A model generated the notes under the pieces. It saw only the letters and a program-made list of their open reading frames with translations. It made no database searches and was not told the DNA's origin. From NCBI GenBank assembly GCA_046331125.1, contig JAXLRL010000016.1, positions 930 through 64,929 of the forward strand: a stretch of DNA of 64,000 nt, written 5' to 3'. The DNA is from Acidimicrobiia bacterium. Its GTDB lineage: Bacteria; Actinomycetota; Acidimicrobiia; IMCC26256; DASPTH01. Position numbers and translations under genes: made by a program. Positions 9,619 through 63,850 of this stretch are shown piece by piece. The stretch's first letter is position 1. Each line of letters starts with the position of its first letter.

Positions 9619-10914
9619 TCAGCCGCCGGCGGGTGCCGCCGTGGTGGTGGGCGCCTCGGCCACGGCCGACGCACCGATGGTCTTCGACTGGACGGGCTTG
9701 CCGTCCTTCGGGAACAGCACGTACTTGCCGTTCTTCACCTGCACGTACCAGTTGCACTGGGTTGCCGGCGGCTTGCCGAAGTTCGTGAGGCTGATGTCGA
9801 TCGGCTGGCACGTGAGCCCGGCGCCGTCCCAGGTGCCGGCGTTGTGGAGCCCGTCGATGAAGCCCTGGCGGGTCGGCGTCTTCCCGGCCTCCTCGAGGCC
9901 CTTGATCGCCAGGTCGGCGGCCATGTACCCGGTGTACATGCCGTAGTCGGGCACGCCGGTGAACTTGGCGTACTTCTTCAGGTCGGACTGGAACTGCTTC
10001 GTCGCCGCGGTCTTCAGCTCCACCGGCGCGAACGTCGTCGACAGCAGCGTGTTCGGCCCGAGCGTCGATGCGATGGGCGAGTCGAGCAGGTCCTGGCCGT
10101 AGCCGGTGGCGAGCACGTTCGCCTTCATGTTCACGCCGTTCTGCGCCAGGCCCTGCACCACGGCGAAGTTCGTCGAGGCCACCATGGGCAGGTACACGGC
10201 GTCGGCGCCCGAGTTCTTGATCCCGAGCACGAGTGGACCGACGTCGGACGTGCCGAAGTCGACACTGGTGTTCGTGTAGACCGCCTTGAGCCCGGCCTCG
10301 GGCACCGCGAACTTCTGCAGGTTCGTCGCGGCCGCGCTCGACGACGCCGACGCGCCGTACGCGAGTGCTGCCACCTTCGTGGCGCCGAGCTTCTTCATGA
10401 CCTGCGGGATGTTGTCGGACGTCACGCCGTTCACCGGTGCGGCGTTGCCGAGCTGGGAGATGATGCTCTCGTTGCCCGGCTGGCCGTAGTACGTGCCGTC
10501 GAACCCGCCGCCGATCATCGGCACCTTGTTCTGCAGCAGGAAGCGGTACGACAGGAACGCGAACGACGAGTTGTTCACGACCGCGAACACGTTCTGGTTC
10601 TGCACCAGGTCCTGCGCGCCGGTGAGGTTCGCACCCGACGACTGGTCGTCGACGATCTCGGTCTCGATCTTCCGGCCGTTCACACCACCCGCGGCGTTCT
10701 GCGCGTCGATGCGGGCCTGGAACGCCTTGCCCGAGTTCTTGAACGTCGAACCCGCGACACCGGTCTGCGAGAAGATGTACCCGAGCTTGATCGTCTTGTC
10801 GGTGACGCCGGGGTCGTTGGCGTCGGCGCCACGTGCCACCCCCGCCGTCCCGAGAGCCATCGCCGTGGTCACCACGAGCGTGACGGTCAGCCTCTTCATG
10901 CCGAGCTTGCGCAT
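9619..10914 (-). CDS. ABC transporter substrate-binding protein (Liv/HAAT family)
   Basis: MRKLGMKRLTVTLVVTTAMALGTAGVARGADAND signal peptide, then IKLGYIFSQTGVAG...GGVNGRKIE. This is the internal start of ORF 9619..11295. Confidence 0.85.
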   Translation of the reverse strand: MRKLGMKRLTVTLVVTTAMALGTAGVARGADANDPGVTDKTIKLGYIFSQTGVAGSTFKNSGKAFQARIDAQNAAGGVNGRKIETEIVDDQSSGANLTGAQDLVQNQNVFAVVNNSSFAFLSYRFLLQNKVPMIGGGFDGTYYGQPGNESIISQLGNAAPVNGVTSDNIPQVMKKLGATKVAALAYGASASSSAAATNLQKFAVPEAGLKAVYTNTSVDFGTSDVGPLVLGIKNSGADAVYLPMVASTNFAVVQGLAQNGVNMKANVLATGYGQDLLDSPIASTLGPNTLLSTTFAPVELKTAATKQFQSDLKKYAKFTGVPDYGMYTGYMAADLAIKGLEEAGKTPTRQGFIDGLHNAGTWDGAGLTCQPIDISLTNFGKPPATQCNWYVQVKNGKYVLFPKDGKPVQSKTIGASAVAEAPTTTAAPAGG

Positions 10915-32905: not shown

Positions 32906-33522
32906 TGCCGAAGGTCGAGACCGCGAACAACTTCTACCTGGTGCTCGCGCTGTTCGCCGACGTGGTCGTGCTCCTCGCGACGCGTCTGCGCCTGCGGCGC
33001 TGGTGTCGAAGCGCGCACGCGAGGTCGCCACCGGCATCGCCGCGGCGTCGTTTCCCACGCCAACCTGCTCGGCTTCGTGGTCGCTGGTCACGACCACGGG
33101 CAGCCTCTACTACTCGGAGCAGGCGGGTTCGATCCCCGCCAGCTGTGCTGGTACCAGCGGATCCTGATGTACCCGCTCGTGTTCGTGCTCGGCGTGGCCG
33201 GTGCCTGGAAGGACCGGCGGGCGTGGATGACCGCGCCAAGCTGTTCGTGGTCGTGGGCGCGGCGTGTCCACCTACCACTGGCTCGTGGAGCGGGTGCCCG
33301 CCTGCCGAGACGGCGCCCTGCTCGCCCGAGGCGCCGTGCACTGCCCCGTGGTTCGAGAAGCTGGGGTTCGTGACCCTGGCCTGGATGGCGCTCAGCGGGT
33401 TCCTCCTCATCGGAACTCTGATGGTGTGCCAGATCGTTGGGAACAGAGTGGCGGCGACCCCCGGCGCCACGGACGAGGACGACGACGAGCGCGACGAGCG
33501 CGAGATGGAGACCGTGTCATGA
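32905..33522 (+). pseudogene. DsbB/BdbC-like disulfide oxidoreductase, central part out of frame
   Basis: The start (MPKVETANNFYLVLALFADVVVLLAT) and end (PWFEKLGFVTLAWMALSGFLLIGTLMV) share one frame. TGSLYYSEQAG and GFDPRQLCWYQRILMYPLVFVLG lie in two other frames. Confidence 0.6.
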
Positions 33523-34224
33523 GCAACAAGCACTCCCGGGCCGCGATGGCCGCCCGGCACCGCCGCAACCAGTGGCTGATCTGGGGCGGCGTCGCCGTCG
33601 CCGCCGATCCTCGTACGGGCTCCCTGTCGCGTCCGGTGGCAGCGACGACTCGTCGAAGGCGTCGAAGAGCAGCGGCACCGAGACGGCGCCCGTCACCGTG
33701 TCGGGTACGAAGCTCCCGGCGTTCACCGACGCGTCCACCGACCTCGCGGTCGGGGAGACCATGCCCACGCTCACCGGCAAGTCGCTCTCGGGCGGTGGTG
33801 TCGAGGTCGCGCCCAACGGCAACCCGCAGATGCTCGTGTTCGTCGCCCACTGGTGCCCGCACTGCCAGGCCGAGGTGCCCCGCATCGTCACGCTCGCGAA
33901 CGACGGCGTGTTCGACGGCGTCGACGTCACCGCGATCGCGACCGGCACCAACTCGGGCTACCCGAACTACCCGCCGTCGTCGTGGCTCGAGCGCGAGAAG
34001 TGGCCCTTCGACGTGATGGCCGACTCGACGACGTTCACCGCGGCCAAGGCCTACGGGCTCGCGTCGTACCCCTACATCGTGTTCGTCGACAAGGACGGCA
34101 AGATCGCCGGCTGCACGAGCGGCGAGATCGCGCCGGCCGACCTCACGAAGATGGTCGAAGTGATCAAGGCCGGCGAGCCGATCCCGGGGTGTCGCCTCGG
34201 CGCGCGCCCTCGTCGGCGAACTGA
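33519..34224 (+). pseudogene. TlpA/ResA-like membrane-anchored thioredoxin, frameshifted
   Basis: MSNKHSRAAMAARHRRNQWLIWGGVAVAA lies in one frame. FVAHWCPHCQAEVP...YPYIVFVDKDGKI lies in ORF 33437..34399. The stop is probably the TGA at 34224, in a third frame. Confidence 0.65.
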
Positions 34225-34228
34225 GGCG

Positions 34229-34659
34229 TCAGCCGCAGTCGCGGCAGAGGCCGACGAGGTCGATGCGGTGGTGCTGCGTGGTGAAGCCCGTCGTGCGGGT
34301 GATCTCCAAGGCCGCCGCGGCGAGCGACTGCTCCACCCGGCCGACGCCGGGACGTCGTCGACACGACCGCACTTGGTGCAGATCGTGCGATGGTGGTGAT
34401 CAGCGAGGTCCTCGGCGAGCTCCCAGCGCGCGAACTCGTCGGTGCCGATCACGCGGTGCACGATCCCGGCCTCCTCGAGCACGACGAGGTTGCGGTACGC
34501 GGAGCTCTGCGCGAGCTCGGGGCGGAGGTCGCGGATCGCGGGGATGGTGAGCGGGCCGGGCGCGTCCGCGAGCGCCTCCACGAGTGCCTGCCGGCTCGGT
34601 GTGAGGCGTTGGCCGACGTCGCGCAGTCGCGTCGACGCGGTCTCGAGCACCTCACCCAT
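34229..34659 (-). pseudogene. Fur-family metalloregulator, frameshift near 34330-34345
   Basis: MGEVLETASTRLRDVGQRLTPSRQALVEAL...DHHHRTICTKCGRVDDV is followed by ...HRIDLVGLCRDCG-TGA in another frame. The length of 431 nt is not a multiple of 3. Confidence 0.7.
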
Positions 34660-36913: not shown

Positions 36914-38182
36914 CTAAGACGGGTCGGGCAGGGTGGCGACGAGCGCGGCGACCATCTTGTAAGCCGCTTCGGCGGGGCCGAGCTCGTCGGCGCGCAGCAG
37001 GTTGGCCAGGATGCGCAGCACCCACTCCATGAGCGTGCGCGACTGCATGCCGATGCGGGTGAGCTCGCGCATCACCGTCGGGTTGCCGATGGCCTTCACG
37101 AACGCCCGGGCGACCCGCCAGTAGAGGCCGTAGATCTCCTCGAGCCGCTCCGGGTAGCGCGCCAGCGCGAGCCCGTCGCCGGTGCGCAGCGCCTCCGACA
37201 CCGACTCCGCCGCCAGGCGCCCCGTCTCGTACGCGAGCGAGATGCCCTCGCCGTTGAACGGGTTGACCGAGCCCGCGGCGTCGCCGACGGTGAGCCAGGT
37301 GGGCCCGATGTTGGGCGTGACCGATCCGCCGGTGGGCAACTTGCCGCCGGTGAACGCCCCGCACGACGTGTCGGGGGAGATGCCCCAGCGCGCCGGCGCG
37401 GTGTCGCAGAACGCCTCCATCAGCCGGCTGGTGTTGATGTCCTTCCAGCCCGAGAAGGTGGAGAGGAGGCCCACGCCGACGTTCACGGTGCCGTCGCCCA
37501 CGGGGAAGATCCAGCCGTACCCGGGGAGGTGGTTGCCGTCGCGGTCGCGGATGTCGAGGTGGCTCTCGATCCAGGGCTCGTCGTGGTGGGGGCTGCGGAA
37601 GTAGCCGCGCACGGCCATCCCGAGCGGGTAGCTGCGGTCGCGGCTGGTGCCGAGCGCCCGGCCGAACCGGGAGTTGGCGCCGTCGGCGACCACCACGTAG
37701 CGGGCCCGCACGGCCTGCGGTGTGCCCTCGCGCTTGACGACGGCACCCGTGACGAGGCCGCCTTCGTGCAGGGGCTCGACGGCCTCGCTGGCGGTCCAGA
37801 CCGTGGCGCCCGCCTTGGTGGCGTTGTCGGCGACCATCTGGTCGAGGTCGCGCCGGCGCATCACGTAGCCGTAGTTGGGGAAGTCGGGGTGGTCGGGCCA
37901 CTTCAGCTCGAGGGTGACCCCGTGGGCGATGGAGCGCAGCCCGTCGTAGCGGAGGCACTCGGAGAGGGGCTGGGCGAGGCCCATGTCCTCGAGCTGGCGC
38001 ACGGCCCGGGGCGTGAGCCCGTCGCCGCACGTCTTCTCACGGGGGAAGCGCTTCTTCTCGACGACGAGGACGCGGTGGCCGGCCTCGGCGAGCCAGTAGC
38101 CGCACGCCGCGCCCGACGGCCCGCCGCCGACGACCAGGACGTCCCAGACGTCGCTCGACCGATCGGTGGGGGGCGCGCTCAT
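36914..38182 (-). CDS. Geranylgeranyl reductase family FAD-dependent oxidoreductase (MenJ-like)
   Basis: WDVLVVGGGPSGAACGYWLAEAGHRVLVVEKK Rossmann motif, CGDGLTP, GDAAGSVNPFNGEGI. 422 aa. Confidence 0.85.
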   Translation of the reverse strand: MSAPPTDRSSDVWDVLVVGGGPSGAACGYWLAEAGHRVLVVEKKRFPREKTCGDGLTPRAVRQLEDMGLAQPLSECLRYDGLRSIAHGVTLELKWPDHPDFPNYGYVMRRRDLDQMVADNATKAGATVWTASEAVEPLHEGGLVTGAVVKREGTPQAVRARYVVVADGANSRFGRALGTSRDRSYPLGMAVRGYFRSPHHDEPWIESHLDIRDRDGNHLPGYGWIFPVGDGTVNVGVGLLSTFSGWKDINTSRLMEAFCDTAPARWGISPDTSCGAFTGGKLPTGGSVTPNIGPTWLTVGDAAGSVNPFNGEGISLAYETGRLAAESVSEALRTGDGLALARYPERLEEIYGLYWRVARAFVKAIGNPTVMRELTRIGMQSRTLMEWVLRILANLLRADELGPAEAAYKMVAALVATLPDPS

Positions 38183-38383: not shown

Positions 38384-38929
38384 ATGGTCAACCTCATCCC
38401 CGACTGGATGCCCTGGATGCGGCCCGCAGGCCGTCTCATCTGGTCGGTCGTACTGCTCGTCATCGGCCTCGTGATCGTCGCTGTGCTGATGCACAAGCGC
38501 AGTCCCGACAAGAAGGCCACGTGGGCGGAGGCGATGGCCGGCGCGGTCGGCGTGTTCGCGTTGATGACGCTCGCGTACGCCGTGATCCCGCACGAGTGGA
38601 TCACCTACTCCGACAAGTACCTGCAGTGGGACACCACCAAGTTCGTGTTCCGCAGCAACCAGGACGTCTTCGGGCTGGGCCTCGTCAACTGGCCCTTCAA
38701 CATGGACAAGAAGGCGATCCGCGACATCGTCGCGGTCGGCATCTACGTCGTGCTGTTCGGCCTGAACCTCTACCTCTTCGCCGCCTGGCAGAAGCGCGGC
38801 GAGAAGGCCGCGGCCACCGGCGAGGAGACGCCCAAGAAGTCGCGCTTCGGCCGGCCGCTGCGTCGCAAGGCGGCGACGCCCGCTGCGGCGACGGCCACGG
38901 CCGGCGCCACCGCTGGAGGGGGTGACTGA
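38384..38929 (+). CDS. Membrane protein, first gene of the Rieske/cytochrome b6 cluster
   Basis: 181 aa, GGAGGAG RBS, 3-4 TM segments. Its stop overlaps the ferredoxin ATG (TGATG). Confidence 0.6.
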   Translation: MVNLIPDWMPWMRPAGRLIWSVVLLVIGLVIVAVLMHKRSPDKKATWAEAMAGAVGVFALMTLAYAVIPHEWITYSDKYLQWDTTKFVFRSNQDVFGLGLVNWPFNMDKKAIRDIVAVGIYVVLFGLNLYLFAAWQKRGEKAAATGEETPKKSRFGRPLRRKAATPAAATATAGATAGGGD

Positions 38930-39342
38930 TGGCCCGCACCGACGCGAACCCGGCAATGCCCGAGTTCGCCACCGACTACCAACTGCAGGAGGTGGACCCG
39001 TCGTTCCTGACGGCGTCGGTGAAGCCCAAGCAGTTCCTCCACATCGACCAGGCCGAGTGCATCATGTGCGAGGGCTGCGTCGACATCTGTCCGTGGAAGT
39101 GCATCCACATGCTGTCGGTCGACGTGATCGACGGCGCGGTCAACACCGAGAAGCCCGGTGAGGACCCCCGCGACCACGTCGCGTTCATCGTCGACGAGGA
39201 CGTCTGCACGCGCTGCGCCCTCTGCGTCGACCGCTGCCCCACCGGCGTCATCGTCCTGGGGAAGCTCTCGTCCGACGTCGCCAACGGCGACCCCCACACC
39301 CGCACGCCGCGGCACGGCTACGCCTACGGCGTGCGGTTCTGA
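38929..39342 (+). CDS. 2x[4Fe-4S] ferredoxin-domain protein
   Basis: CIMCEGCVDICP and CTRCALCVDRCP (two CxxCxxCxxxCP motifs). 137 aa. Confidence 0.85.
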   Translation: MARTDANPAMPEFATDYQLQEVDPSFLTASVKPKQFLHIDQAECIMCEGCVDICPWKCIHMLSVDVIDGAVNTEKPGEDPRDHVAFIVDEDVCTRCALCVDRCPTGVIVLGKLSSDVANGDPHTRTPRHGYAYGVRF

Positions 39343-39372
39343 GCACCACAGGTTCCGAGGGAGAACACGTTC

Positions 39373-40167
39373 GTGGCCAACGGCAACGGCACCAGCAACG
39401 GCAGCGGCGGCGTGAAGGTCGCCGAGAAGCTGGACAAGGTCGACGAGAAGGTTCGTGGTTCACAGGCGTGGACCGCGATCTTCCGACCCGGTTCGGTCTT
39501 CCGGCGGGGGTTCACCGACAGTCCCCGTAACCGGTCCTACGTGATCATGAACAACGTGCTGTACCACCTTCACCCGGTGAAGGTGAAGCGGCACGCGGTG
39601 AAGGTGTCCTACACCCTCTGCCTGGGTGGGCTCTCCTTCTTCCTGTTCATCCTGCTCACGGTCACCGGCATCTTCCTGATGTTCTTCTACCGGCCGACCG
39701 CGGCGGCGGCGTGGCCGACGGTGCGCACGCTGGAGACGGCGGTCACCTTCGGTTCGCTCGTGAGAAACATGCACAGATGGGCGGCGCACCTCATGGTGCT
39801 CACCGTCTTCCTGCACATGGCGCGCGTCTTCTACCACGGTGCCTACAAGGCGCCGCGTGAGTTCAACTGGGTGATCGGCGTGGTGCTGCTCACGCTCACC
39901 CTGCTGCTCTCGTTCACCGGCTACCTGCTGCCCTGGGACCAGCTGGCCCTCTGGGCGGTCACCGTCGGTACGAACATGATGGGGTACACGCCGGTCTTCG
40001 GATCGTCGGTGAAATACGTGTTGCTGGGATCCAAGGAGATCAGCAACGAGACCCTGCGTCGTTGGTACGTCCTGCACGTGTTGCTGCTGCCGTTCACCAT
40101 CGTCATCTTCATGGCGGTGCACTTCTGGCGCGTCCGCAAGGACGGCGGCATCTCCGGACCGCTGTAA
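39373..40167 (+). CDS. Cytochrome b6-type (N-terminal half of cytochrome b, 4 TM)
   Basis: RNMHRWAAHLMVLTVFLHMARVF (H-x13-H), VLHVLLLPFTIVIFMAVHF (H-x14-H), YTLCLGG cysteine, PREFNW, C-terminus RKDGGISGPL. Confidence 0.9.
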   Translation: MANGNGTSNGSGGVKVAEKLDKVDEKVRGSQAWTAIFRPGSVFRRGFTDSPRNRSYVIMNNVLYHLHPVKVKRHAVKVSYTLCLGGLSFFLFILLTVTGIFLMFFYRPTAAAAWPTVRTLETAVTFGSLVRNMHRWAAHLMVLTVFLHMARVFYHGAYKAPREFNWVIGVVLLTLTLLLSFTGYLLPWDQLALWAVTVGTNMMGYTPVFGSSVKYVLLGSKEISNETLRRWYVLHVLLLPFTIVIFMAVHFWRVRKDGGISGPL

Positions 40168-40184
40168 TCGGGAGCTGAGAGAAC

Positions 40185-41033
40185 GTGGCGGAGATCCCCG
40201 AACACCTGCTGCAGCGCAGCAAGGAGCGCCGGAAGGCGCTCGGCCTTCCCGTGGACGGTGACGAGGGCGGCGAAGCCGCTGCCCCGGCGGCGGCCGACGA
40301 GGCGACCCCGGCTGAGGCCGCCCCCGCGGCGGCCGAGGCGGCCGCGCCCGCGGAGGCATCCGCGCCGGCCGAGGACGTCACCACCGAGAGCGGCGCCAAG
40401 ATCCCGGCGCACCTGCTCGAGCGGGCCAAGCGTCGCAAGGCCGCGGCTGCGGGTGGCGGCGCGGCGGCGGCTGCCGGCGGCGGTGCCGCGGCGGCGGCCA
40501 CGGCCACCCTGCCCGCGCCCACCACCACCGGCCCCGGCGGTCACACGCAGCGACTGCTGACGGTCGTGAAGTCGGGCTCGATCCAGCAGGCCCGGGGCGA
40601 GGCCCAGGACAAGGTCCACACCTGGCCGCACCTGCTCGTCATCGAGTTCGCGGCGATCCTGATCATGCTCGCGGGGCTCACGATCTTCGCGGCCCTGGTC
40701 CGGGCGCCACTGCTCGGTCTCGCCGACTTCAACAAGACGCCGAACCCGTCCAAGGCTCCGTGGTACTTCCTCGGTCTGCAGGAGCTCCTGACGATGTTCC
40801 ACCCGATGGTCGCGGGTGTGACGGTGCCGGGCATCGCGCTCTTCCTGCTGATGGTGGCGCCGTTCGTCGACAAGAACCCGTCGAACAAGCCCGACGACCG
40901 CAAGTTCGCCATCTCCATGTTCACGCTGTTCATGCTGATGTGGGCCGTCCTTGTCATCATCGGTTCGTTCTTCCGTGGCCCGGGCTTCAACTTCGTGATG
41001 CCCTGGAACGACGGCATCTTCTTCGAGTTGTAG
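40185..41033 (+). CDS. Subunit IV-like (C-terminal half of cytochrome b) with a long Ala/Pro-rich N-terminal extension
   Basis: 3 TM segments. Qo-loop NPSKAPWYFLGLQELL. The N-terminal 130 aa are low complexity with a duplicated basic motif. Confidence 0.85.
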   Translation: MAEIPEHLLQRSKERRKALGLPVDGDEGGEAAAPAAADEATPAEAAPAAAEAAAPAEASAPAEDVTTESGAKIPAHLLERAKRRKAAAAGGGAAAAAGGGAAAAATATLPAPTTTGPGGHTQRLLTVVKSGSIQQARGEAQDKVHTWPHLLVIEFAAILIMLAGLTIFAALVRAPLLGLADFNKTPNPSKAPWYFLGLQELLTMFHPMVAGVTVPGIALFLLMVAPFVDKNPSNKPDDRKFAISMFTLFMLMWAVLVIIGSFFRGPGFNFVMPWNDGIFFEL

Positions 41034-41045
41034 GAGCTGGGGTCA

Positions 41046-41897
41046 GTGTTGATCGCCATCGCCATCGTTGCGATCGTCGTGCTCGCGGTCGTGGGGCTCG
41101 TGGTCTCCGCGCGCAAGCGTTCGACGACCGGGAACCTGAGCCGCGAGACGCGCAAGCGCGACGAAGCCGCCGCCGCGTCCGCGACGCCGTCGACCTCCGG
41201 TGAGGTCGAAGCGGAGACGGCCGAGGGTCGCGAGCGCGCCGACGAGGCGCGTCAGGCCATCGAGTCGGGTGCCTCCTCCGTGCCCGAGCCGCGTGCCGCG
41301 GCCACGCCCGTCGCCTACGAGCCGGTCGACCTCGACGAGCTCGGGGTCACCCGTCGCCAGTTCTTCAACCGCTCGATCCTCGCCGGCGCGGGTCTCGGCC
41401 TCGGTGCGTTCGGCGTGTCGGTGCTCGCCTTCCTCTGGCCCTCCGGTGGCGGCGGCTTCGGCGGCAAGGTGGTCGTCGGTTCCGAGGCCGACGCGAAGTC
41501 GGCCTTCGACAACAAGCAGCCGTACTACAACGCCGCCGCCAAGACCTACATCGTGGCCTACCCGAAGGAAGACCTCCCGAAGGCCAAGAAGGTGTACGAC
41601 CCGCCGGTGTTCGCGGGCATGGAGGCCGGCTACGTCGCCCTCTACCAGAAGTGCGTGCACCTCGGCTGCCGCGTCCCGTGGTGCCAGAGCTCGCAGTGGT
41701 TCGAGTGCCCGTGCCACGGCTCGAAGTACAACCGCGTCGGTGAGAAGCAGGGTGGTCCGGCCCCGCGTGGTCACGACCGCTTCGCCCTCCAGGTGTCGGG
41801 CGGCAACATCGTCGTCGACACCGCCGTCATCTACAACGGCCCGCCGATCGGCACGAACACCACGAACCAGAGCCCTGAAGGGGCGCCCTGTGTCTGA
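41046..41897 (+). CDS. Rieske [2Fe-2S] subunit with a Tat-type anchor
   Basis: TRRQFFNRSILAGAGLGLG, CVHLGC and CPCHGS boxes. Confidence 0.9.
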   Translation: MLIAIAIVAIVVLAVVGLVVSARKRSTTGNLSRETRKRDEAAAASATPSTSGEVEAETAEGRERADEARQAIESGASSVPEPRAAATPVAYEPVDLDELGVTRRQFFNRSILAGAGLGLGAFGVSVLAFLWPSGGGGFGGKVVVGSEADAKSAFDNKQPYYNAAAKTYIVAYPKEDLPKAKKVYDPPVFAGMEAGYVALYQKCVHLGCRVPWCQSSQWFECPCHGSKYNRVGEKQGGPAPRGHDRFALQVSGGNIVVDTAVIYNGPPIGTNTTNQSPEGAPCV

Positions 41898-41954
41898 TCG
41901 TCTCGTGCTTCCCCCCACCGGCTCGGCTCTCGCGATCTCCGGAGCTTCGCTCGC

Positions 41955-43247
41955 ATGAGTACCCGCACCGTCCTGATCATCATGAACTTCGTCGCGGTGG
42001 CGGCGATCGGCGGGTATCTGCTGTGGCGCGTCTTCAGCGTCAAGCGCAACCCCGACGTCACCACCCCGGAGAACCTCGAACCGTTCTTCGACGACGAGGT
42101 GCTCGAGGGCGCCCACCTCGAGCGGGCCCTCGGTGTCGCGCTCATCGCGCTGATCATCGTGATCATCGGCCTCCTCGCCTACTTCATCTGGGAGCCGTTC
42201 CGCGAAGACGCCGCTGGTGACGGCTTCAAGGAGCGTTCGGTCGAGCGCGGCGCGGTGCTGTTCGCCAACTCCGCGTCGAAGAACTACGACTCCACCAAGT
42301 CGCTGCTGTGCGCCAACTGCCACGGTGTCGACGGCGGTGGCGGTGTCGCCAGCTTCGTGGTCAAGAGCGAGGACCCGCGCTGCGACCCGAACCAGACGGT
42401 CAACCAGGACCTCGTCGACAACGCGCCGTACTGCCTGCCTAAGCAGGTCTCGTGGGCGGCGCCGAGCCTGAAGCTCGCGTCGTTGCGCTACGACCGCAAA
42501 CAGCTCACGCAGATCATCACCTACGGACGCCCGGGCACACCCATGCCCGCGTGGGGTGTGGTCTCCGGCAAGGGCGCGCTGCAACAGCAGTCGATCCAGG
42601 ACCTCGTCAACTACGTCGACAGCCTGTCGACCACGAGTGACAAGGCGATGACCGAGGCGGCCCAGGAAGTGCGCGACTGCACCTCCCGCTCCGCCTGCGT
42701 CGGCCGCAAGCAGCTCCAGAGCACCGAGGTGCGTGACGCCGCCGACAAGTGGGTCACCGACGCCCGTGCCGAGCTCGTCGCCGCGCAGGCCGAGAAGGCC
42801 GCGAACATCGACCCCAAGCAGGACGCGACCTACGACAAGCTGGTCGCGCTGAAGCAGGAGACGCTCGACACCGCGCTGTCGTGGCAGGACGCCACCGTCA
42901 ACGCGACCGACGGTCAGATCCTCTTCATGAACCAGTGCGCCCGCTGCCACACCCGCGGCTGGTCGTACTTCGACCCCGCCAACCCCAACGGCGACAGCAG
43001 CCCGAACCCGCCGATGGGCACGATGGGTGGCGGGGCGTACGGCCCGAACCTCACCAACGGCGACGTGAACAACCAGTTCCCGCCGCCCACCGGCGAGGCC
43101 GAGCTGTTCGCGTGGATCAGCGAGGGTGTGCCGGCCAACCAGGGCTACGGCATCCGGGGCATCTCCTCGGGCCGCATGCCGCACTTCGGCGCCGTGCTCA
43201 CCAAGACCCAGATCGAAGCCATCATGGCCTACGAGCGTTCGCTGTAG
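41955..43247 (+). CDS. Membrane-anchored diheme c-type cytochrome
   Basis: Two N-terminal TM helices, CANCHG and CARCHT heme motifs, 430 aa. Confidence 0.85.
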   Translation: MSTRTVLIIMNFVAVAAIGGYLLWRVFSVKRNPDVTTPENLEPFFDDEVLEGAHLERALGVALIALIIVIIGLLAYFIWEPFREDAAGDGFKERSVERGAVLFANSASKNYDSTKSLLCANCHGVDGGGGVASFVVKSEDPRCDPNQTVNQDLVDNAPYCLPKQVSWAAPSLKLASLRYDRKQLTQIITYGRPGTPMPAWGVVSGKGALQQQSIQDLVNYVDSLSTTSDKAMTEAAQEVRDCTSRSACVGRKQLQSTEVRDAADKWVTDARAELVAAQAEKAANIDPKQDATYDKLVALKQETLDTALSWQDATVNATDGQILFMNQCARCHTRGWSYFDPANPNGDSSPNPPMGTMGGGAYGPNLTNGDVNNQFPPPTGEAELFAWISEGVPANQGYGIRGISSGRMPHFGAVLTKTQIEAIMAYERSL

Positions 43248-43259
43248 GAGCTTGACGAC

Positions 43260-44111
43260 GTGCACCTGACCATCACGCTCGCCAACGAGGCGCTGCACAA
43301 GACGATCTGGTACCCGACGATCCTCGGCGCGCTCGCCGTGGTCGCCGGCGTCATCCTCTTCGTCGGATCCGTGTACCTGCTGCTCGGCACCAACCTCGGT
43401 GCCCGGCTCGGGTTCCTCATCTCCTTCACCGGTCTCGCCGGCTTCATGGTGGTGCTCACCCTCCTCTGGATGACCACCGCCTCGCCGCTCAACACCCTCA
43501 AGGGCCGACTCCCGCAGTGGAAGGTGCTCGAGGTCACCGCCGACATCGGGAACGCGAAGACCGAGGCGGTGCGCGGCATCGCCAACCCGGAGAACAAGGC
43601 CCAGGGCTCCGACATCGCGAACGTGAAGGCCGCGGTCGACACCGCGCTCGTCACCAAGGTGGCGACGCCCACCGTCGAGGTGAAGCCGAACGACAACCGC
43701 TTCGCCAAGTTCCAGGACGTCACCAAGTACATGGTGCTCGAGACCTACGTGATCGGTGGGTCCCGACCGCAGTTCTGGAAGGGTGAGTTCACCCACCAGT
43801 CCAAGTACGCGGTGGTGCAGTACTGCGCGACCGCGGAGCAGACCCAGGTCTACGGTCTGCCGCCGCTGCCGCCCGAGTGCGCGACCGGCGCCGACGCGCA
43901 GAAGGGCTTCGTCGTGCTCGAGTACGACCTCGGCTCCGTGCGCATGCCGCCGTTCTTCGCCTTCCTCGGCTCACTCGTGCTCTTCGGCCTCGGCCTCCTC
44001 TGCCTGCACTGGCGGGAGAAGGACCTCGCCGAGGCCAAGGCCGCCGAGGAGGCCGCCAAGGCGCCGAAGCCGGCCCCTGCTCCCGACGACTCCGAACTCG
44101 CGAAGGTCTGA
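43260..44111 (+). CDS. Membrane protein (2 N-terminal TM, 1 C-terminal TM, large external domain)
   Basis: Intact 283-aa ORF, 12 nt after the cytochrome c stop. Confidence 0.6.
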
Positions 44112-44114
44112 GCC

Positions 44115-44345
44115 ATGCTGCGTCGAATCCGTTCCGTCGCCGGTGCCGCGCTCGTCGCGATCGCCGCGCTGCTCGTGCTCTCGGCGCCGGCCGGCGCGCA
44201 GCAGCTCGTCGACGCCGGCAAGGAGGGCGACGGCTCCGGTGGCCTCGCCTTCGTGATCATGGTCTTCGTGATCGTGTGCATCGCGGCGTCGCTGTTCTTC
44301 CTCGACCACGTGCGCCGCAACCGGCTGCCGAAGGAAGAGGACTGA
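44115..44345 (+). CDS. Small membrane protein with signal peptide plus TM (76 aa)
   Basis: Begins 3 nt after the previous stop. [20 protein letters not shown] and [19 protein letters not shown]. Confidence 0.5.
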
Positions 44346-50299: not shown

Positions 50300-50952
50300 G
50301 CCCGGAGCAGCTCCTCGGCTTCGTCCACGCGACCGGCGCGGATCAGATCGAGCATGCCGGAATCGAGCGCAGTCTGCCAATCGGCGCCCTCGGTGGGACG
50401 CCCCTCGGCGCGCAGGCGCTCCCGTGCCTCCGACATGATGTCCACCAGTCTCGCGTACTCGGGCCCGATCTCCTCACCCAGGCGCCGGCGGAGCCAGGCC
50501 GCCAGTGCCGGGCTGCGCCCGCCGGTGCCCACGGCCACCAGGAGGTCGCCCCGGCGCAGGGCCGACACGCTGGTGAGCGAGCCCACCTCGGGGTCGTCGG
50601 CGGTGCCCAGCCACACCCGGGCGGCCTCGGCGGTGGCGGCCACCGCCCGGTCGACGGCCGGGTCGCCCGTGGCGGTGAACGCCAGCCAGGCGCCGTCGAG
50701 GTCGGCGGGGGCGAAGGCCCGCTCGTGCAGGGTGACGGTGCCCTCGGCGGCCCACCCGCGCACCTGTTCGCCCGGCTCGGGGGCGATCACGACGACCTGG
50801 GCGCCCGCCTCGAGCAGTCCGGCGATCTTGCGGGCCGCGATCCGACCGCCGCCCACCACCACGCACCGACGGCCGGTGAGCACGAGGCTGACGGGGTAGC
50901 CCGTGACCGCGTCGCGGCCTCCCGCGCCAGGGTCCGCGCCGGTGTCGGTCAC
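50284..50952 (-). CDS. Precorrin-2 dehydrogenase/sirohydrochlorin ferrochelatase (SirC/CysG N-terminal domain-like)
   Basis: GTG 50952 forms a GTGA overlap with the rex stop. RRCVVVGGGRIAARKIAGLLEAGAQVVVIAP. Confidence 0.75.
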   Translation of the reverse strand: MTDTGADPGAGGRDAVTGYPVSLVLTGRRCVVVGGGRIAARKIAGLLEAGAQVVVIAPEPGEQVRGWAAEGTVTLHERAFAPADLDGAWLAFTATGDPAVDRAVAATAEAARVWLGTADDPEVGSLTSVSALRRGDLLVAVGTGGRSPALAAWLRRRLGEEIGPEYARLVDIMSEARERLRAEGRPTEGADWQTALDSGMLDLIRAGRVDEAEELLRACLWS

Positions 50953-51647
50953 CCCGTGGCCTCGGCGGGGGTGGTGTCGCGGCGCTGCTGGTAGAAGGAG
51001 AGGATCTGGAGCTCGATCGCCAGGTCGACCTTGCGCAGCGACACCTCGGGCGGCGCGGCCACGACCGTGGGTGCGAAGTTGAGGATCGAGGTGACGCCGG
51101 CCTCGACGAGGCGGTCGGCCACCTCCTGCGCGGCGTGCGCCGGCGTCGCGATGATGCCGATGGCGACGCCCCGCTCCTGGGTGATCGCGGGCAGGGCGGC
51201 GAGCGGCTCGATCACCAGGCCGCCGACGGTGCGGCCGACCTTCTCCGGGTCGGCGTCGACCAGCGCCACCACCCGGTAGCCCCGGGCCTCGAAGCGCTGG
51301 TAGTTGGCGAGCGCGTGGCCGAGGTTCCCCACGCCGACGATGACGACCGGCCAGTCGTGGGTGAGACCGAGCTCGCGGGCGATCTCGTGCACGAGGTGGG
51401 CGACGTCGTACCCGACGCCCCGCGTGCCGTAGGAGCCGAGGTACGACAGGTCCTTGCGCACCTTCGCCGCGTTCACCCCGGCCAGTTCGGCGAGGCGCTG
51501 CGAGGAGACGGTGCCGATGCCGTGTTCGGCCGTCTCCAACAGGGCCCGGTAGTAGAGCGGGAGCCGGGCGACGGTCGCCTCGGGGATGCGGCGGACCTCG
51601 GGAATCGGAGCCTCCTTCGGCTGGTGCCCCGGACACGTCGGGGGCAC
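50949..51647 (-). CDS. rex: Redox-sensing transcriptional repressor Rex
   Basis: IPEATVARLPLYYRAL winged helix, VVIVGVGNLGHALANY Rossmann motif. 232 aa. Confidence 0.9.
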   Translation of the reverse strand: MPPTCPGHQPKEAPIPEVRRIPEATVARLPLYYRALLETAEHGIGTVSSQRLAELAGVNAAKVRKDLSYLGSYGTRGVGYDVAHLVHEIARELGLTHDWPVVIVGVGNLGHALANYQRFEARGYRVVALVDADPEKVGRTVGGLVIEPLAALPAITQERGVAIGIIATPAHAAQEVADRLVEAGVTSILNFAPTVVAAPPEVSLRKVDLAIELQILSFYQQRRDTTPAEATG

Positions 51648-51669: not shown

Positions 51670-51687
51670 CTTGTGCACAAATTCTCA
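51670..51687. promoter_or_regulatory. Candidate Rex operator
   Basis: TTGTGCACAAATTCTCAA matches 12 of 14 specified positions of TTGTGAA-N4-TTCACAA. It lies 23 nt upstream of the rex start, in the divergent intergenic gap. Confidence 0.5.
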
Positions 51688-51725
51688 AAGTCACGAAGTG
51701 AGGTCCGCACGCGTACGCTCCGGGC

Positions 51726-59632: not shown

Positions 59633-60247
59633 ATGCCCCGCTACGAACTGCCCGAGCTCGACTACGACGTCGCCGCGCTGGAGCCGCACCTCTCGGCCCG
59701 CATCGTGGAGCTCCACCACGACAAGCACCATGCCGCCTACGTCGCCGGCGCCAACGCCACGCTGGAGAAGCTGGCGGAAGCCCGCGAATCGGGCGAATTC
59801 GCCACGATCAACCAGCTGGAGAAGAACCTGGCCTTCCACGTGTCGGGCCACGTCCTCCACTCACTCCTCTGGAAGAACATGTCGCCCGACGGCGGCGGCA
59901 CGCCCGAGGGCGAGCTCGCGGCAGCCGTCGACGAGTCGTTCGGGTCCTTCGACGCCTTCCGCAAGCAGTTCGACGAGGCCGCCATGGGCGTGCAGGGTTC
60001 GGGCTGGGCCGCGCTCGCCTGGGAGCCCACCGGCGGCCTGCTCGTCGTCGAGCAGGTGTACGACCACCAGAGCAACCTCGCGCAGGGCGCGCCCCCGCTC
60101 CTCGTGCTCGACATGTGGGAGCACGCGTTCTACCTGCAGTACGAGAACGTGAAGGGCGACTGGGTCAAGGCGTTCTGGAACCTCGTCAACTGGCCCGACG
60201 TCGCCGCCCGGTTCGCCGCCGCGCGATCGCTCGGCGCACTCGTCTGA
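59633..60247 (+). CDS. sodA: Fe/Mn superoxide dismutase
   Basis: [23 protein letters not shown]...[11 protein letters not shown]. 204 aa. Confidence 0.9.
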
Positions 60248-60411
60248 TCCACCCCGGGAACCGGTCGTCATCCCACGACCACGAACCCGCGTCACGAGCA
60301 GGCATCGTGGCGCGCGGTTCGGATAGCCTGCGCGCGAAGTACGCCTAGGACGGCGCCGGGTGCTGCACACAGGTGCAGTGCGGCCGGCGCGTGGGGAAGG
60401 GGAGCCGGGTC

Positions 60412-60887
60412 GTGAGCGTGTACCTGCCGATCCTCATCATGATCGTGCTGGTGTTCCTCTTCGCGGCCGGATCGTTCGTGGCGTCGACGTTCCTCGCGCC
60501 CGGCGGCCGACCTCCGCGAAGGAAGCCCCGTACGAGTGCGGCATCGTGCCGGAGTACGAGCCGGCCGAGCGCTTCCCGGTGAAGTTCTACCTGGTCGCGA
60601 TGGCCTTCATCGTCCTCGACGTGGAGATCATCTTCCTCTATCCGTTCACCACGATCCTGCGCAGCCTCGGCGCGTACGGCCTGCTGATCATGGGCTTCTT
60701 CCTGCTCGTGCTGCTCGTGCCGTTCGCCTACCTGCTCTCCACCGGCGCGCTCGACTGGGGTCCGGTGAAGCAGGTCGTGTCGCGTGCCGGCACCACCATC
60801 CTGCGCGCCGCCGGCGCGCCCGGTCGCGACGGTCTCGACCCGGCCGACGTCGCCGCCGCCCGTGACGAGTCCGGGAAGGCCGCGTAG
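60412..60887 (+). pseudogene. nuoA: NADH-quinone oxidoreductase subunit A, single frameshift at the C-run 60499-60501
   Basis: GTG 60412 after GGGGAAGGGGAG. VSVYLPILIMIVLVFLFAAGSFVASTFLAP lies in ORF 60373..60582. KEAPYECGIVPEYE...FYLVAMAFIVLDVEIIFLYP lies in ORF 60360..60887. Confidence 0.8.
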
Positions 60888-61430
60888 ATGGGGCTCGAAG
60901 CCGTTCCGCACAACTTCCTCACGGGGAAGGTGGAAGACCTCGTCAAGTGGGCGCAGCGCAACTCGGTGTGGCCCGCCACCTTCGGTCTCGCCTGTTGCGC
61001 GATCGAGATGATGGCCGCCGGCGCCGCGCACTACGACCTCTCGCGCTGGGGCATGGAGATCTTCCGTGCGAGTCCGCGTCAGGCCGACCTCATGATCGTC
61101 GCCGGCCGTGTCAGCCAGAAGATGGCGCCGGTGCTCCGCCAGGTCTACGACCAGATGGTCGAGCCCAAGTGGGTCATCTCGATGGGCGTCTGCGCGAGCA
61201 GCGGCGGCATGTTCAACAACTACGCGATCGTGCAGGGCGTCGACCAGATCGTCCCCGTCGACGTCTACGTGCCGGGGTGCCCGCCCGGGCCCGAGACGCT
61301 CATGCACGGCATCCTCACCCTCGGCGAGGAGATCAAGAGCGGCGAGATCATGAAGCGCCGCGCCGCCTCCCGCAGCGGTGGTGCCGAGATCACGATCGAC
61401 CAGCGCGACGGCGTCCCGTCCGCCGTCTGA
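60888..61430 (+). CDS. nuoB: NADH-quinone oxidoreductase subunit B
   Basis: [20 protein letters not shown] cluster N2 cysteines. Confidence 0.9.
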
Positions 61431-61446
61431 GGGACCCGAGCGCGAG

Positions 61447-62016
61447 ATGCCCGACGAGAACACCGAAGCTCGTGAAGAAGATCACGAGGTGGAGCCCGAG
61501 CCCGAGCCCATCTCCGACGACGTCGCCGCCGCGGTCGCCGAGAAGTTCCCCGGCACCGTGTTCGTGGAGTCGCACGGCCAGGCCGTCGTCCACGTCGAGC
61601 GCGAGTCGTGGCACGCGGTCGGCGCGTTCCTGCGCGACGAGCAGCGCTTCACGCAGTGCATGGACGTCACCGCGGTCGACCACCTGCGCAGCGAGGGCCG
61701 CTTCCTCCCCGGCGCGGTCGCGCCCGAGCGGTTCGAGGTCGTCGCCAACTACCTGTCGCACCCGCGCAACCGCCGGCTGCGCGTGATCACGCAGGTGCCG
61801 GCCGACGACACCACCATCGCGAGCCTCGTCGACCTCTACCCCGGCCTGGCGTTCGCCGAGCGCGAGGTGTGGGACCTCCTCGGCATCTCCTTCGAGGGCC
61901 ACGACGACCTCACCCGCATCCTGATGCCCGACGACTGGCCCGACCACCCCCTGCGCAAGGACGACCTGCCGGCGCGGGTGCCGGTCACGTTCAAGGGAGA
62001 CCCGAGCCCCCGATGA
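61447..62016 (+). CDS. nuoC: NADH-quinone oxidoreductase subunit C
   Basis: ATG 61447. FAEREVWDLLGISFEGHDDLTRILMPDDW. Confidence 0.9.
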   Translation: MPDENTEAREEDHEVEPEPEPISDDVAAAVAEKFPGTVFVESHGQAVVHVERESWHAVGAFLRDEQRFTQCMDVTAVDHLRSEGRFLPGAVAPERFEVVANYLSHPRNRRLRVITQVPADDTTIASLVDLYPGLAFAEREVWDLLGISFEGHDDLTRILMPDDWPDHPLRKDDLPARVPVTFKGDPSPR

Positions 62017-63338
62017 GCGAACGAGTCGACAGCCCGAGCCCGGTCGCCGAGCAGTCCGCCGAGCAGCGGCGACTGGAAGCGCAGACCGACGAGGGCGCGC
62101 AGCTCCTGCGTCCCCTCACCGGGGAGGCCGCGGAGAAGGAACTGGTGTTGACGGGCGGGCCGTGGCCCGACCTCGACGACACCATGATCATCAACATGGG
62201 GCCGCAGCACCCGTCCACGCACGGTGTGCTCCGCATCATGATGGAGCTCAACGGCGAGACGGTGCTGCGCGCCAAGCCGGTCATCGGTTACCTGCACACC
62301 GGCATGGAGAAGACGGCCGAGGAGCTGTCGTACGTGCAGGGCTGCACCAACGTCACCCGCATGGACTACGCGTCGCCGTTGTCGAACGAGCTCGCCTTCT
62401 CGCTCGCGACCGAGCAGCTGCTCGACCTCGAGCTCCCCGAGCGTGCGACGTGGATCCGCATGCTCATGGTCGAGCTCAACCGCATGTCGTCGCACCTCCT
62501 GTTCCAGGCCACGAACGGCATGGACGTCGGTGCGCTCTCGATGATGATCTACGGCTGGCGTGAGCGCGAGCGTGCGCTGCGCGTGCTCGAGATGATCACC
62601 GGCCTGCGGATGAACCACAACTACATCCGCCCCGGTGGAGTCGCCGCCGACCTGCCCGACGGCTGGCAGGAGGAAGTGCTCGAGCTCTGCGACTTCGTCG
62701 AGGAGGGCGTGCGCGAGTACGACGAGCTGCTCACCGACAACCCGATCTTCCGCGAGCGCACCGTCGGCGTCGGTGTCATCACCACCGAAGAGGCGCTCGC
62801 GCTCGGCGCCACCGGGCCGATCCTGCGCTCCACCGGCTTCGCCTGGGACCTGCGCCGCGCGCAGCCGTACCTCGCCTACGACGACGTCGACTTCGACGTG
62901 ATCTACACGCAGAACGGCGACGTCTTCGACCGCTACCAGATCCGGCTCTACGAGATCCTCGAGTCGGTGAAGATCGTGCGCCAGTGCGTGGAGAAGATGC
63001 CCAAGGGCGACTACCGCGTCCAGGACCGCAAGGTCACCCCGCCGCCGCGCGCTCGCATCGACGAGTCGATGGAGGCGCTGATCCACCACTTCAAGCTCTT
63101 CACGGAGGGCTTCCGCGTCCCGCCGGGCGAGACCTACTCGGTGGTCGAGTCACCTCGTGGCGAGATCGGCTGCTACCTCGTGTCTGACGGCTCGCCGAAG
63201 CCGGTGCGCATGCACATCCGGGGCCCGTCCTTCTACAACCTCCAGTCGATGGACGCGATGGTGCCGGGCTGCATGTTCGCCGACGCCGTGGCGATCGTGT
63301 CGAGCATCGACCCGATCATGGGGGAGGTCGACCGCTAG
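62013..63338 (+). CDS. nuoD: NADH-quinone oxidoreductase subunit D
   Basis: ATGA overlap with nuoC. NMGPQHPSTHGVLR...IGYLHTGMEK...DPIMGEVDR. Confidence 0.9.
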   Translation: MSERVDSPSPVAEQSAEQRRLEAQTDEGAQLLRPLTGEAAEKELVLTGGPWPDLDDTMIINMGPQHPSTHGVLRIMMELNGETVLRAKPVIGYLHTGMEKTAEELSYVQGCTNVTRMDYASPLSNELAFSLATEQLLDLELPERATWIRMLMVELNRMSSHLLFQATNGMDVGALSMMIYGWRERERALRVLEMITGLRMNHNYIRPGGVAADLPDGWQEEVLELCDFVEEGVREYDELLTDNPIFRERTVGVGVITTEEALALGATGPILRSTGFAWDLRRAQPYLAYDDVDFDVIYTQNGDVFDRYQIRLYEILESVKIVRQCVEKMPKGDYRVQDRKVTPPPRARIDESMEALIHHFKLFTEGFRVPPGETYSVVESPRGEIGCYLVSDGSPKPVRMHIRGPSFYNLQSMDAMVPGCMFADAVAIVSSIDPIMGEVDR

Positions 63339-63850
63339 TGCCGTTCACTCCGTCGAATCTCGAGGCCGCCCGCGAACTGATCGCGCGGTACCCGCAGAAG
63401 AAGTCCGCCGTCCTCCCGCTCCTGCACCTCGCGCAGGACCAGGAGGGGTACGTGAGCCCGGAGGCGATCGAAGAGGTCGCCGACCTCCTCGACCTCACGC
63501 CCGCGCTCGTGCTCGGGACGTGCAGCTTCTACACGATGTTCAAGCGCGAGCCGGTCGGCAAGCTCCTCGTGTCGGTGTGCACGAACGTGAGCTGTCTCGT
63601 GAACGGCGGTCCCGACCTGTTGTCGCAGCTCCAGCACCGCTACGCCGACGACACCGACGTCACCGTCGAGGAGGTCGAGTGCGTCGCGGCGTGCGACCTC
63701 GCGCCGGTGCTGCAGGTCAACTACGAGTTCCACGGCCCGCTCACGGGCGAGACCGCTGTCGACCTCATCGAGGCGTACAAGCGTGGCGAGCGCGTGGCCC
63801 GCACGATCTCCGGCACGGCCGTGAAGTCTTCGGGCGGAGGCGCAGCCTGA
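63338..63850 (+). CDS. nuoE: NADH-quinone oxidoreductase subunit E
   Basis: GTG overlaps the nuoD stop. [2Fe-2S] motif CTNVSC...CVAACDLAP. Confidence 0.9.
   Translation: MPFTPSNLEAARELIARYPQKKSAVLPLLHLAQDQEGYVSPEAIEEVADLLDLTPALVLGTCSFYTMFKREPVGKLLVSVCTNVSCLVNGGPDLLSQLQHRYADDTDVTVEEVECVAACDLAPVLQVNYEFHGPLTGETAVDLIEAYKRGERVARTISGTAVKSSGGGAA

Follow-up and report, generated by a model that had tools for sequence, protein, structure and literature searches.

The 64,000-nucleotide stretch of an Acidimicrobiia bacterium analysed here (the window; contig JAXLRL010000016.1 of assembly GCA_046331125.1) carries eight co-directional genes on its plus strand, g1 to g8, which encode, in this order, a membrane protein, a 2x[4Fe-4S] ferredoxin, cytochrome b6, subunit IV, a Rieske protein, a dihaem cytochrome c and two further membrane proteins. 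Judged by sequence, the core of this system is a Rieske/cytochrome b complex of the b6f type and not the actinobacterial QcrCAB. The arrangement is not a peculiarity of one genome but the standard of the whole class, as about 500 places encode a close b6 relative in a survey that took one genome per species. Although the split APWY-type cytochrome b of Ilumatobacter has been listed since 2014 (PMC4122944), the distinctive and so far uncharacterised feature is the pairing of a b6-type complex with a strictly co-conserved di-cluster ferredoxin, predicted to be cytoplasmic. An earlier note on this DNA had described the same eight-gene set and order, and both are as it claimed: all the motifs that it quoted were located, and Pfam and NCBIfam support g2 to g6. 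The split b6 and subunit IV, the Rieske protein, the dihaem cytochrome c, the ferredoxin and the APWY motif were confirmed, as was the difference from QcrCAB, whose models score far below their cut-offs.

The loci compared were the best 80, with b6 proteins 78-97% identical to that of the window. All of them belong to Acidimicrobiia-type Actinomycetota, including Candidatus Microthrix, Ilumatobacteraceae and the isolate Aquihabitans sp. G128 (L056). When searched by tblastn with the window proteins, 64 showed all seven genes from g1 to g7, and the order is the same in every one of these, always on one strand. In fact, order and strand are kept wherever the contig is long enough, with a single exception (L035). 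The ferredoxin gene lies directly upstream of b6, in the same position and strand, in 79 of the 80 loci, and also in five distant lineages, in which the ferredoxin shares 35-43% identity with g2. The g1 gene precedes the ferredoxin in 75 of the 80, and g7 keeps its position in 64; both are also present in three of the distant loci (L081, L083 and L085). By contrast, g8 was detected in only about 12-15 closely related loci and is not co-conserved; it is weakly tied to the unit, and the conserved unit is consequently one of seven genes, g1 to g7. Co-conservation of the ferredoxin and the flanking membrane genes with b6 and Rieske, which the earlier note had made a test of its proposal, is thus found for the ferredoxin, g1 and g7, but not for g8, which is confined to close relatives.

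The fraction of positions that are at least 95% conserved is 67% in b6, 45% in the ferredoxin (79 species), 32% in subunit IV, 18% in the Rieske protein, 8% in the cytochrome c and 5% in each of g1 and g7. As for the exception, L035 (positions 10001-10792) comes from an Ilumatobacteraceae metagenome-assembled genome in which a b6 gene 78% identical to g3 stands without nearby partner genes; it may be an orphan paralogue or an artefact of assembly or binning.

The b6-type core and its relatives

The ligand motifs of cytochrome b6 can be read directly in g3. The histidines of H134-x13-H148 (nt 39772-39816) and H235-x14-H250 (nt 40075-40122), the haem b ligands, are aligned by HMMER with His86/100 and His187/202 of b6 and are conserved in 80 species. 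The CLGG motif occupies residues 83-86 (nt 39619-39630), and its Cys83 falls on Cys35 in the b6 proteins of spinach, Nostoc and Chlamydomonas, the point of covalent attachment of haem ci (or cn), while Arg255 aligns with Arg207 of the same three proteins. The earlier note was therefore right in that its cysteine and its histidine spacings map onto the haem ligands of b6. Cys83, which is invariant in 80 of 80, is the predicted haem ci site and would, by this alignment, be loaded with the cofactor. The C-terminus reads RKDGGISGPL. In the PDB, the best matches of g3 are chloroplast and cyanobacterial b6 (4e-48), followed by bc1 cytochrome b (7e-33) and by mycobacterial and corynebacterial QcrB (about 1e-22).

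Both halves of the split cytochrome b carry N-terminal extensions that are highly conserved among the relatives. That of b6 is basic and lineage-specific (residues 30-57, nt 39460-39540), and it is followed by an invariant YHLHPVKVKRH (nt 39562-39594). In subunit IV, a cytoplasmic extension of 145 aa precedes three predicted transmembrane (TM) helices. It contains a duplicated basic motif, [IV]PxHLLxRSxxRRKA (residues 4-20 and 73-88; nt 40194-40244 and 40401-40448), of which both copies are found in 60 of 72 species, with acidic Ala/Pro/Glu-rich linkers between them, and a further conserved stretch, GPGGHTQRLLTVVKSGSIQ (nt 40530-40589). The two extensions are absent from b6f and fall outside the models of Geobacter ExtP and ExtQ (the NCBIfam ExtP model begins only at b6 residue 58). 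In the remainder of subunit IV, the Qo motif APWY (residues 191-194, nt 40755-40766) and Glu154, which lies in WPHLLVIEF (nt 40623-40649), are each invariant in 72 of 72 sequences, and the family profile matches Chlamydomonas subunit IV with 7e-06.

The Rieske protein has a twin-arginine motif, TRRQFF (nt 41349-41366), ahead of its second TM segment, box I CVHLGC (nt 41652-41669) and box II CPCHGSKY (nt 41706-41729); the double arginine, CVHLGC and CPCHGS are conserved among the relatives. Within box II, Ser226 (70 of 71) and Tyr228 (71 of 71) form the Ser/Tyr signature of high-potential Rieske proteins. The top PDB matches are PetC of b6f (the best, 5.6e-14) and then Kuste4569 of Kuenenia (9rk4), whose box II CPCHGSKY is identical. 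Within residues 1-129 (nt 41046-41429), an additional TM segment at the N-terminus and some 85 aa of cytoplasmic loop precede the twin-arginine motif, an architecture that resembles the multi-TM, internally Tat-targeted (twin-arginine translocation) QcrA of other Actinobacteria. The cytochrome c, g6, is anchored in the membrane by an N-terminal TM hairpin and, according to TM prediction, likewise gains a cytoplasmic loop through an extra N-terminal segment. Both of its haem-binding motifs, CANCH (nt 42309-42323) and CARCH (nt 42936-42950), are conserved, although the overall sequence is variable (25-76% identity) and the distant locus L081 has a monohaem version. A search of PDB sequences returned no match for g6.

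Against the NCBIfam models of the actinobacterial complex, the proteins reach 118.1 bits for QcrB (cut-off 500), 17.5 for QcrA (275) and 17.3 for QcrC (200). The description "b6f/Firmicute-type", proposed at the outset, is apt in its first half and imprecise in its second: the Bacillus-type b6 model gives g3 213.6 bits against a cut-off of 325, and the nearest described group is the APWY clade. By motifs and model scores, the complex would belong to this clade of Kao and Hunte (2014), or subfamily G of Dibrova et al., because it combines the APWY motif, the CxGG cysteine and a split gene; the context of the cysteine is LCLGG here, against the WCMGG reported as typical of the clade (PMC4122944). 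The description of the APWY clade includes Actinobacteria and Ilumatobacter, together with Geobacter and anammox bacteria; Ilumatobacter is among only five actinobacterial split cytochromes b in that survey, which knew of no characterised APWY complex (PMC4122944). Our own searches of the PDB and of the literature, with subscription journals outside their coverage, found no paper or solved structure on this ferredoxin-containing complex, and the eight-gene order does not appear there as an already characterised one.

The complex shares some features with each of several better known systems and differs in others. Among solved structures, the b subunit and the Rieske protein have their closest relatives in the b6f complex of cyanobacteria and chloroplasts, which shares the split genes, the histidine spacings, the Cys35 and Arg207 equivalents and the terminal GISGPL. 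However, its Qo motif is PEWY instead of APWY, its substrate is plastoquinol and not, as presumably here, menaquinol, it lacks the long extensions of b6 and subunit IV, and ferredoxin is for it a transient soluble partner and not a gene-linked one. Moreover, Pfam and NCBIfam scans of the operon found no genes for cytochrome f or PetG/L/M/N, and g6 is a class I-type dihaem cytochrome c. The b6c-type complexes of Firmicutes (Bacillus QcrABC and the heliobacterial enzyme) are Gram-positive, menaquinone-based and split, with the CxGG cysteine and a c-type, often dihaem, cytochrome. They differ in their PDWY or PEWY motif, in a subunit IV that is fused to the cytochrome c and in a low-potential Rieske signature. 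We know of no Firmicute b6c operon that contains a ferredoxin gene.

QcrCAB of Mycobacterium, Corynebacterium and Streptomyces comes from the same phylum as the present complex and presumably has the same role; its cytochrome c is likewise dihaem, and its Rieske protein, too, has several TM segments and an internal twin-arginine motif. In contrast, its cytochrome b is about 540 aa long, whereas that of the window is short and split and has the haem ci cysteine. With regard to the Cbc-type ExtO/ExtP/ExtQ of Geobacter, g3 passes the ExtP cut-off (305.9 against 290 bits) and subunit IV resembles ExtQ, although it stays below that model's cut-off (54.7 against 150). Geobacter ExtP and ExtQ are devoid of the N-terminal extensions, their cluster has no ferredoxin, and the multihaem, porin and rhodanese ext genes are missing here. 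On two counts, the low ExtQ score and the absence of every other Geobacter ext gene, we have rejected ExtP as a functional label. As the ExtP score is just above the cut-off, NCBI records (e.g., P0050) name the b6 of Acidimicrobiia "selenite/tellurite reduction operon b-type cytochrome", which is misleading.

A ferredoxin and three membrane proteins

The two cluster motifs of g2, CIMCEGCVDICP and CTRCALCVDRCP, are located at nt 39058-39102 and 39205-39240. According to Pfam and NCBIfam, the protein contains Fer4 domains alone, with no flavin or NAD(P) domain. Sequence prediction found neither a TM segment nor a signal or twin-arginine motif, and the protein should thus be cytoplasmic, on the side where haems bH and ci sit. 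Its net charge is -9 (family mean -11), and the C-terminal tail HGYAYGVRF is conserved. In an alignment of 79 species all nine cysteines are invariant: the eight of the clusters and a ninth, C58, in CPWxC. This last motif, CPWKC in the window (39091-39102), places C58 and Trp56 directly after the first cluster motif, and both residues are invariant family-wide, even in members that are only 29-40% identical. The family is a narrow one, as an exhaustive search of 1.84 billion cluster representatives yielded 33 clusters at E<=1e-30, although true distant members, 35-47% identical, do exist.

Over-long "fusion" versions of the proteins of this operon are plentiful in public protein collections (P0077, P0084, P0080, P0036, P0256, P0307 and P0323). 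They derive from frameshifts or alternative-frame calls in high-GC contigs, and they could mislead searches for domain architectures. Apparent fusions of g1 with the ferredoxin (P0256, P0307 and P0323) were rejected, as their additional parts are out-of-frame stretches rich in Arg, Pro and Ser, that is, frameshift artefacts.

The small g1 protein is predicted to span the membrane three times and to end in a basic tail on the cytoplasmic side (WQKRG ... FGRPL); it has conserved Trp, His and Tyr residues, and it is translationally coupled to g2. In g7, TM prediction indicates two segments at the N-terminus and one at the C-terminus, between which some 160 aa form an external domain. Neither these two proteins nor g8 belong to a family in Pfam or NCBIfam, g1 having a sub-threshold CbtA match only, and the profiles of g1 and g7 found no matches among PDB sequences. 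They are candidate lineage-specific components of the complex, g7 as a subunit and g1 as a subunit or anchor.

From the observed gene content, ligand motifs, synteny and conservation we infer that the cofactors are loaded and that g1, g2 and g7 associate with the core, as well as the direction in which electrons would flow. The most economical reading of g2 would be that of a permanent Fe-S subunit on the n-side of the complex, because its charge (-9 to -11) is complementary to that of the b6 extension (+8) and of the g1 tail (+4 to +7), because it is so well conserved and because its start overlaps the stop of g1 by 1 nt. A different role may be considered, since in organisms with b6f the maturation of haem ci depends on a dedicated n-side pathway, whose components are small membrane proteins in which Trp and Tyr residues are conserved (PMC2712960): g2, perhaps with g1, could be an assembly factor absent from the mature enzyme, acting in the attachment of haem ci, for which chloroplasts use the CCB system, or in the delivery of Fe-S clusters or haem. 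The size, membrane location, conserved residues and coupling of g1 would suit such a function. However, g1 has no Pfam similarity to the CCB1, CCB2/4 or YGGT families and its profile has no PDB match, the CCB factors are devoid of redox cofactors (PMC2712960), assembly factors are rarely better conserved than a catalytic Rieske subunit, and the N-terminal extensions of b6 and subunit IV speak for docking that is permanent. We consequently regard an assembly role as distinctly improbable.

Possible routes of the electrons

With g2 taken as a permanent subunit, the reading that we tentatively prefer, while granting it somewhat less than an even chance, is that of a menaquinol:cytochrome c reductase in which the ferredoxin connects the low-potential haem branch with a partner in the cytoplasm, with outward flow as the favoured direction. 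Menaquinol would be oxidised at the Qo site formed by b6 and subunit IV. One electron would then pass to the Tat-exported Rieske protein, with its high-potential signature, and through the membrane-anchored dihaem cytochrome c to terminal oxidases. The second would cross the membrane via haems bL and bH to the covalently bound haem ci (at Cys83) on the cytoplasmic side. There, the acidic ferredoxin would be docked, with the basic b6 and subunit IV extensions and the g1 tail as its probable anchors, and its two clusters would serve as a wire between the bH/ci pair and the cytoplasmic partner. In addition to a Q cycle, the drop from menaquinol to a Rieske protein at about +300 mV could push the other electron onto a low-potential cytoplasmic acceptor, in the same way as has been proposed for the anammox complexes.

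These anammox complexes, which carry cytoplasmic Fe-S subunits, are the closest analogues. In Kuenenia stuttgartiensis, Kuste4569-4574 and Kustd1480-1485 encode b6-type complexes with a cytoplasmic Fe-S flavoprotein. AlphaFold3 models of the anammox complexes show an electron path from haem cN to Fe-S clusters, possibly via an extra b haem ligated by an N-terminal histidine of b6, for which His43 of Kuste4571 and His62 of Kustd1481 have been proposed, and their Rieske proteins titrate at +303 (Kuste4569) and +335 mV, which fits a quinol-driven reduction of NAD(P)+. In both systems b6 and subunit IV are separate proteins with a haem cN-type site, the Ser/Tyr pair of the window Rieske protein is also that of Kuste4569, and the anammox complexes are members or neighbours of the same APWY clade or subfamily G. 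Outward flow is favoured here because Ser226 and Tyr228 are near-invariant, because box II is identical to that of Kuste4569 and because of the Fe-S chains modelled next to haem cN. The differences are also considerable. The window encodes a bare two-cluster ferredoxin without FAD or NAD(P) domain, and no large n-side subunit of the anammox type was found; subunit IV has three predicted TM helices and not five; the cytochrome c is dihaem and not hexa- or octahaem; there is no HAO-like subunit; and the hosts are aerobes that carry oxidase genes.

Several considerations weigh against the preferred reading. To begin with, g2 has no flavin or NAD(P) domain of its own, there is no partner gene in the operon, and aerobic heterotrophs have no obvious need for a low-potential reductant drawn from quinol. 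If this is their only complex III, a working Qi site must be kept. The charge argument is a weak one, as basic cytoplasmic loops are expected from the positive-inside rule, and the anammox mechanism that serves as the analogy is itself unproven. On the side of the evidence, the Ser/Tyr signature only predicts the Rieske potential, and the type of quinone is deduced from taxonomy and from a MenJ-like neighbour that scores below its cut-off (317 against 700 bits). In the HMMER alignment, Glu154 falls one residue short of the position that corresponds to Phe40 of subunit IV, which makes its assignment as a haem ci ligand ambiguous. The AlphaFold2 model of g2 alone is unusable (mean pLDDT 55 and pTM 0.36, from an alignment of 89 sequences), and the ferredoxin-b6 "fusions" that might have spoken for a physical link (P0077, P0084 and P0080) had to be rejected, being again out-of-frame Arg/Pro/Ser-rich frameshift artefacts.

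Electrons might also enter the complex through g2 instead of leaving it. The ferredoxin would then be reduced by cytoplasmic donors (e.g., the soluble ferredoxin of 2-oxoacid oxidoreductases), and its electrons would reach menaquinone at the Qi site by way of haem ci, so that the complex would be a built-in ferredoxin:quinone reductase. The structural evidence is the same as that for outward flow; for cyclic electron flow in b6f, the entry of ferredoxin electrons at haem cn is an established hypothesis (PMC5600118); and an inlet would allow a normal Q cycle and agrees better than outward flow with a sole complex III that lies next to oxidase genes. It leaves unexplained, however, the high-potential Rieske signature and the APWY motif shared with the anammox complexes, no donor enzyme is encoded nearby in the window, and the inward route was judged energetically wasteful for anammox by Hauser et al. 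Taken by itself, we consider an inlet rather unlikely, although this direction is nearly as plausible as outward flow; buffering or assembly roles are less likely.

The strong conservation of g2, in the face of an operon without partner domain or partner gene, could also mean that it is bound to the complex and is not a through-route. Its part might be structural, or it might buffer electrons or sense the redox state; in this way it would stabilise or gate the n-side haem pair, for instance by limiting semiquinone and oxygen side reactions in an aerobe that uses menaquinone, and the nine invariant cysteines, one beyond the eight cluster ligands, would be in agreement with such a role. Nevertheless, two canonical clusters with full sets of ligands are more typical of a wire than of a sensor, and we find this explanation improbable.

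Some Acidimicrobiia oxidise iron, which counts for yet another direction, namely, a reverse operation in which a periplasmic high-potential donor would feed electrons through the cytochrome c and the Rieske protein to menaquinone or to the ferredoxin. Kao and Hunte linked the APWY motif with reverse operation (PMC4122944). However, the cluster is universal in the mostly aerobic and heterotrophic Acidimicrobiia and adjoins terminal oxidase genes, and the apparently only cytochrome b of Ilumatobacter (PMC4122944) would be needed for forward operation. Reverse operation is thus very improbable.

The broader claim, that a whole class of abundant aerobes respires through a b6-type complex III with a two-cluster ferredoxin permanently bound next to haem ci, which either bifurcates the electrons of menaquinol onto a low-potential acceptor in the cytoplasm or acts as a ferredoxin:quinone reductase through haem ci, appears to us possible but doubtful. 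If it were true, it would offer a cultivable, oxygen-tolerant model for a reaction that has so far been postulated only for chloroplast b6f and for anammox complexes. It bears on the role of haem ci (cn) and on the exchange of electrons between Rieske/cytochrome b complexes and cytoplasmic carriers at the level of ferredoxin, a question that concerns both the cyclic electron flow of chloroplasts and the way in which anammox bacteria make NAD(P)H. A ferredoxin module genetically fixed to the complex in aerobes, with at least one named isolate (Aquihabitans sp. G128), would make the hypothesis accessible to ordinary biochemistry and cryo-EM. Additionally, soil, fresh water, the sea and activated sludge all harbour Acidimicrobiia in abundance (e.g., Microthrix), and the complex appears to be their main quinol-oxidising respiratory enzyme.

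Genomic neighbourhood and gene calls

The surroundings of the operon point to a housekeeping menaquinol:cytochrome c reductase of Acidimicrobiia, because genes for oxidases and for cytochrome c maturation adjoin it in relatives, and a MenJ-like reductase and a rex-hem operon lie near it in the window. Ilumatobacter has been reported to have only a split cytochrome b, and the claim that this is a sole complex III comes from that one genome survey (PMC4122944). The distant loci were found with a profile of four divergent ferredoxins, and the proteins retrieved are named Actinomycetota or Actinobacteria where the source names them. On three of the contigs the module is the same, running from a small membrane protein through ferredoxin, b6, subunit IV, Rieske and cytochrome c to a membrane protein. 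In L081 (GC 68%) it adjoins ResB/CcsA/CcdA and COX1/COX2, in L083 (GC 58%) genes of the Ccm system I, and in L085 (GC 66.5%) ResB/CcsA/CcdA and the cbb3 genes FixN/FixO. The maturation neighbours are therefore of system I (Ccm) in L083 (30-6530) and of system II (ResB/CcsA/CcdA) in L081 (2969-6407) and L085 (1775-5709). Rex is encoded downstream of the module in L081 and L083, and in a fifth lineage, L087, the ferredoxin gene is immediately followed by the same b6.

In the window, a gene of the geranylgeranyl reductase family lies divergently upstream of the operon (36914-38182, minus strand). Its best match is MenJ, with 317 bits against an equivalog cut-off of 700, and a MenJ-like neighbour is also found at about 45 of the 80 related loci. 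A minus-strand series, rex-hemA-hemC-cobA/hemD-hemB-hemL, is headed by rex at 50949-51647. Just upstream of rex, at 51671-51688, there is a Rex-operator-like site, TTGTGCACAAATTCTCAA, the only good one; no Rex operator was found upstream of g1. No gene for an FAD- or NAD(P)-binding Fe-S oxidoreductase was found in the operon or its flanks. The earlier note had also named three flanking systems, of which a MenJ-like reductase gene and the haem operon were found, but the nuo operon is not adjacent: this NADH dehydrogenase operon begins at about 60360, some 16 kb downstream of the complex, and its first part occupies about 60360-63850 (plus strand).

The coordinates of the eight genes and the evidence for each are collected in Table 1. 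The intergenic distances from g1 to g8 are -1, 30, 17, 12, 57, 12 and 3 nt. The spacing is thus tight, as had been claimed, although it extends from -1 to 57 nt instead of 0 to 40, and with the starts of the longest open reading frames (ORFs) there is one overlapping junction, g1/g2, and not two. The operon as a whole covers 38384-44345, and the G+C content at third codon positions (GC3) of its ORFs is 0.91-0.96, which is of coding type and typical of the genes of this genome (G+C about 71%). A scan of the cluster found no plus-strand terminator-like site within the operon, and a sigma-70 promoter scan gave no match.

Table 1. Genes of the operon in the window, with strand and the evidence for each call
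Gene	Product	Length (aa)	Position	Strand	Evidence
g1	Membrane protein	181	38384..38929	+	ORF, GC3, TM prediction
g2	2x[4Fe-4S] ferredoxin-like protein	137	38929..39342	+	Fer4 families, 7.7e-11
g3	Cytochrome b6	264	39373..40167	+	Pfam PF00033 Cytochrome_B, 1.8e-47
g4	Subunit IV	282	40185..41033	+	PF00032 Cytochrom_B_C/PetD, 1.3e-09, residues 180-262
g5	Rieske protein	283	41046..41897	+	PF00355 Rieske, 5.2e-08
g6	Dihaem cytochrome c	430	41955..43247	+	PF13442 and PF00034, ~1e-11, two domains
g7	Membrane protein	283	43260..44111	+	ORF, TM prediction
g8	Small membrane protein	76	44115..44345	+	ORF, predicted membrane protein

Horizontal transfer of the operon was considered and rejected, since, although its GC dips to 0.67-0.69 against 0.72-0.73, its GC3 matches the genome and the cluster is class-wide. 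Very long antisense ORFs overlap the operon, for example one of 917 aa at 41043-43796 (minus strand), but their codon-position GC is of non-coding type and they are artefacts of the high GC content. Further away in the window, a thioredoxin/AhpC-TSA-like protein is encoded upstream, at 33437-34399 (plus strand), and an Fe/Mn superoxide dismutase at 59633-60247 (plus strand).

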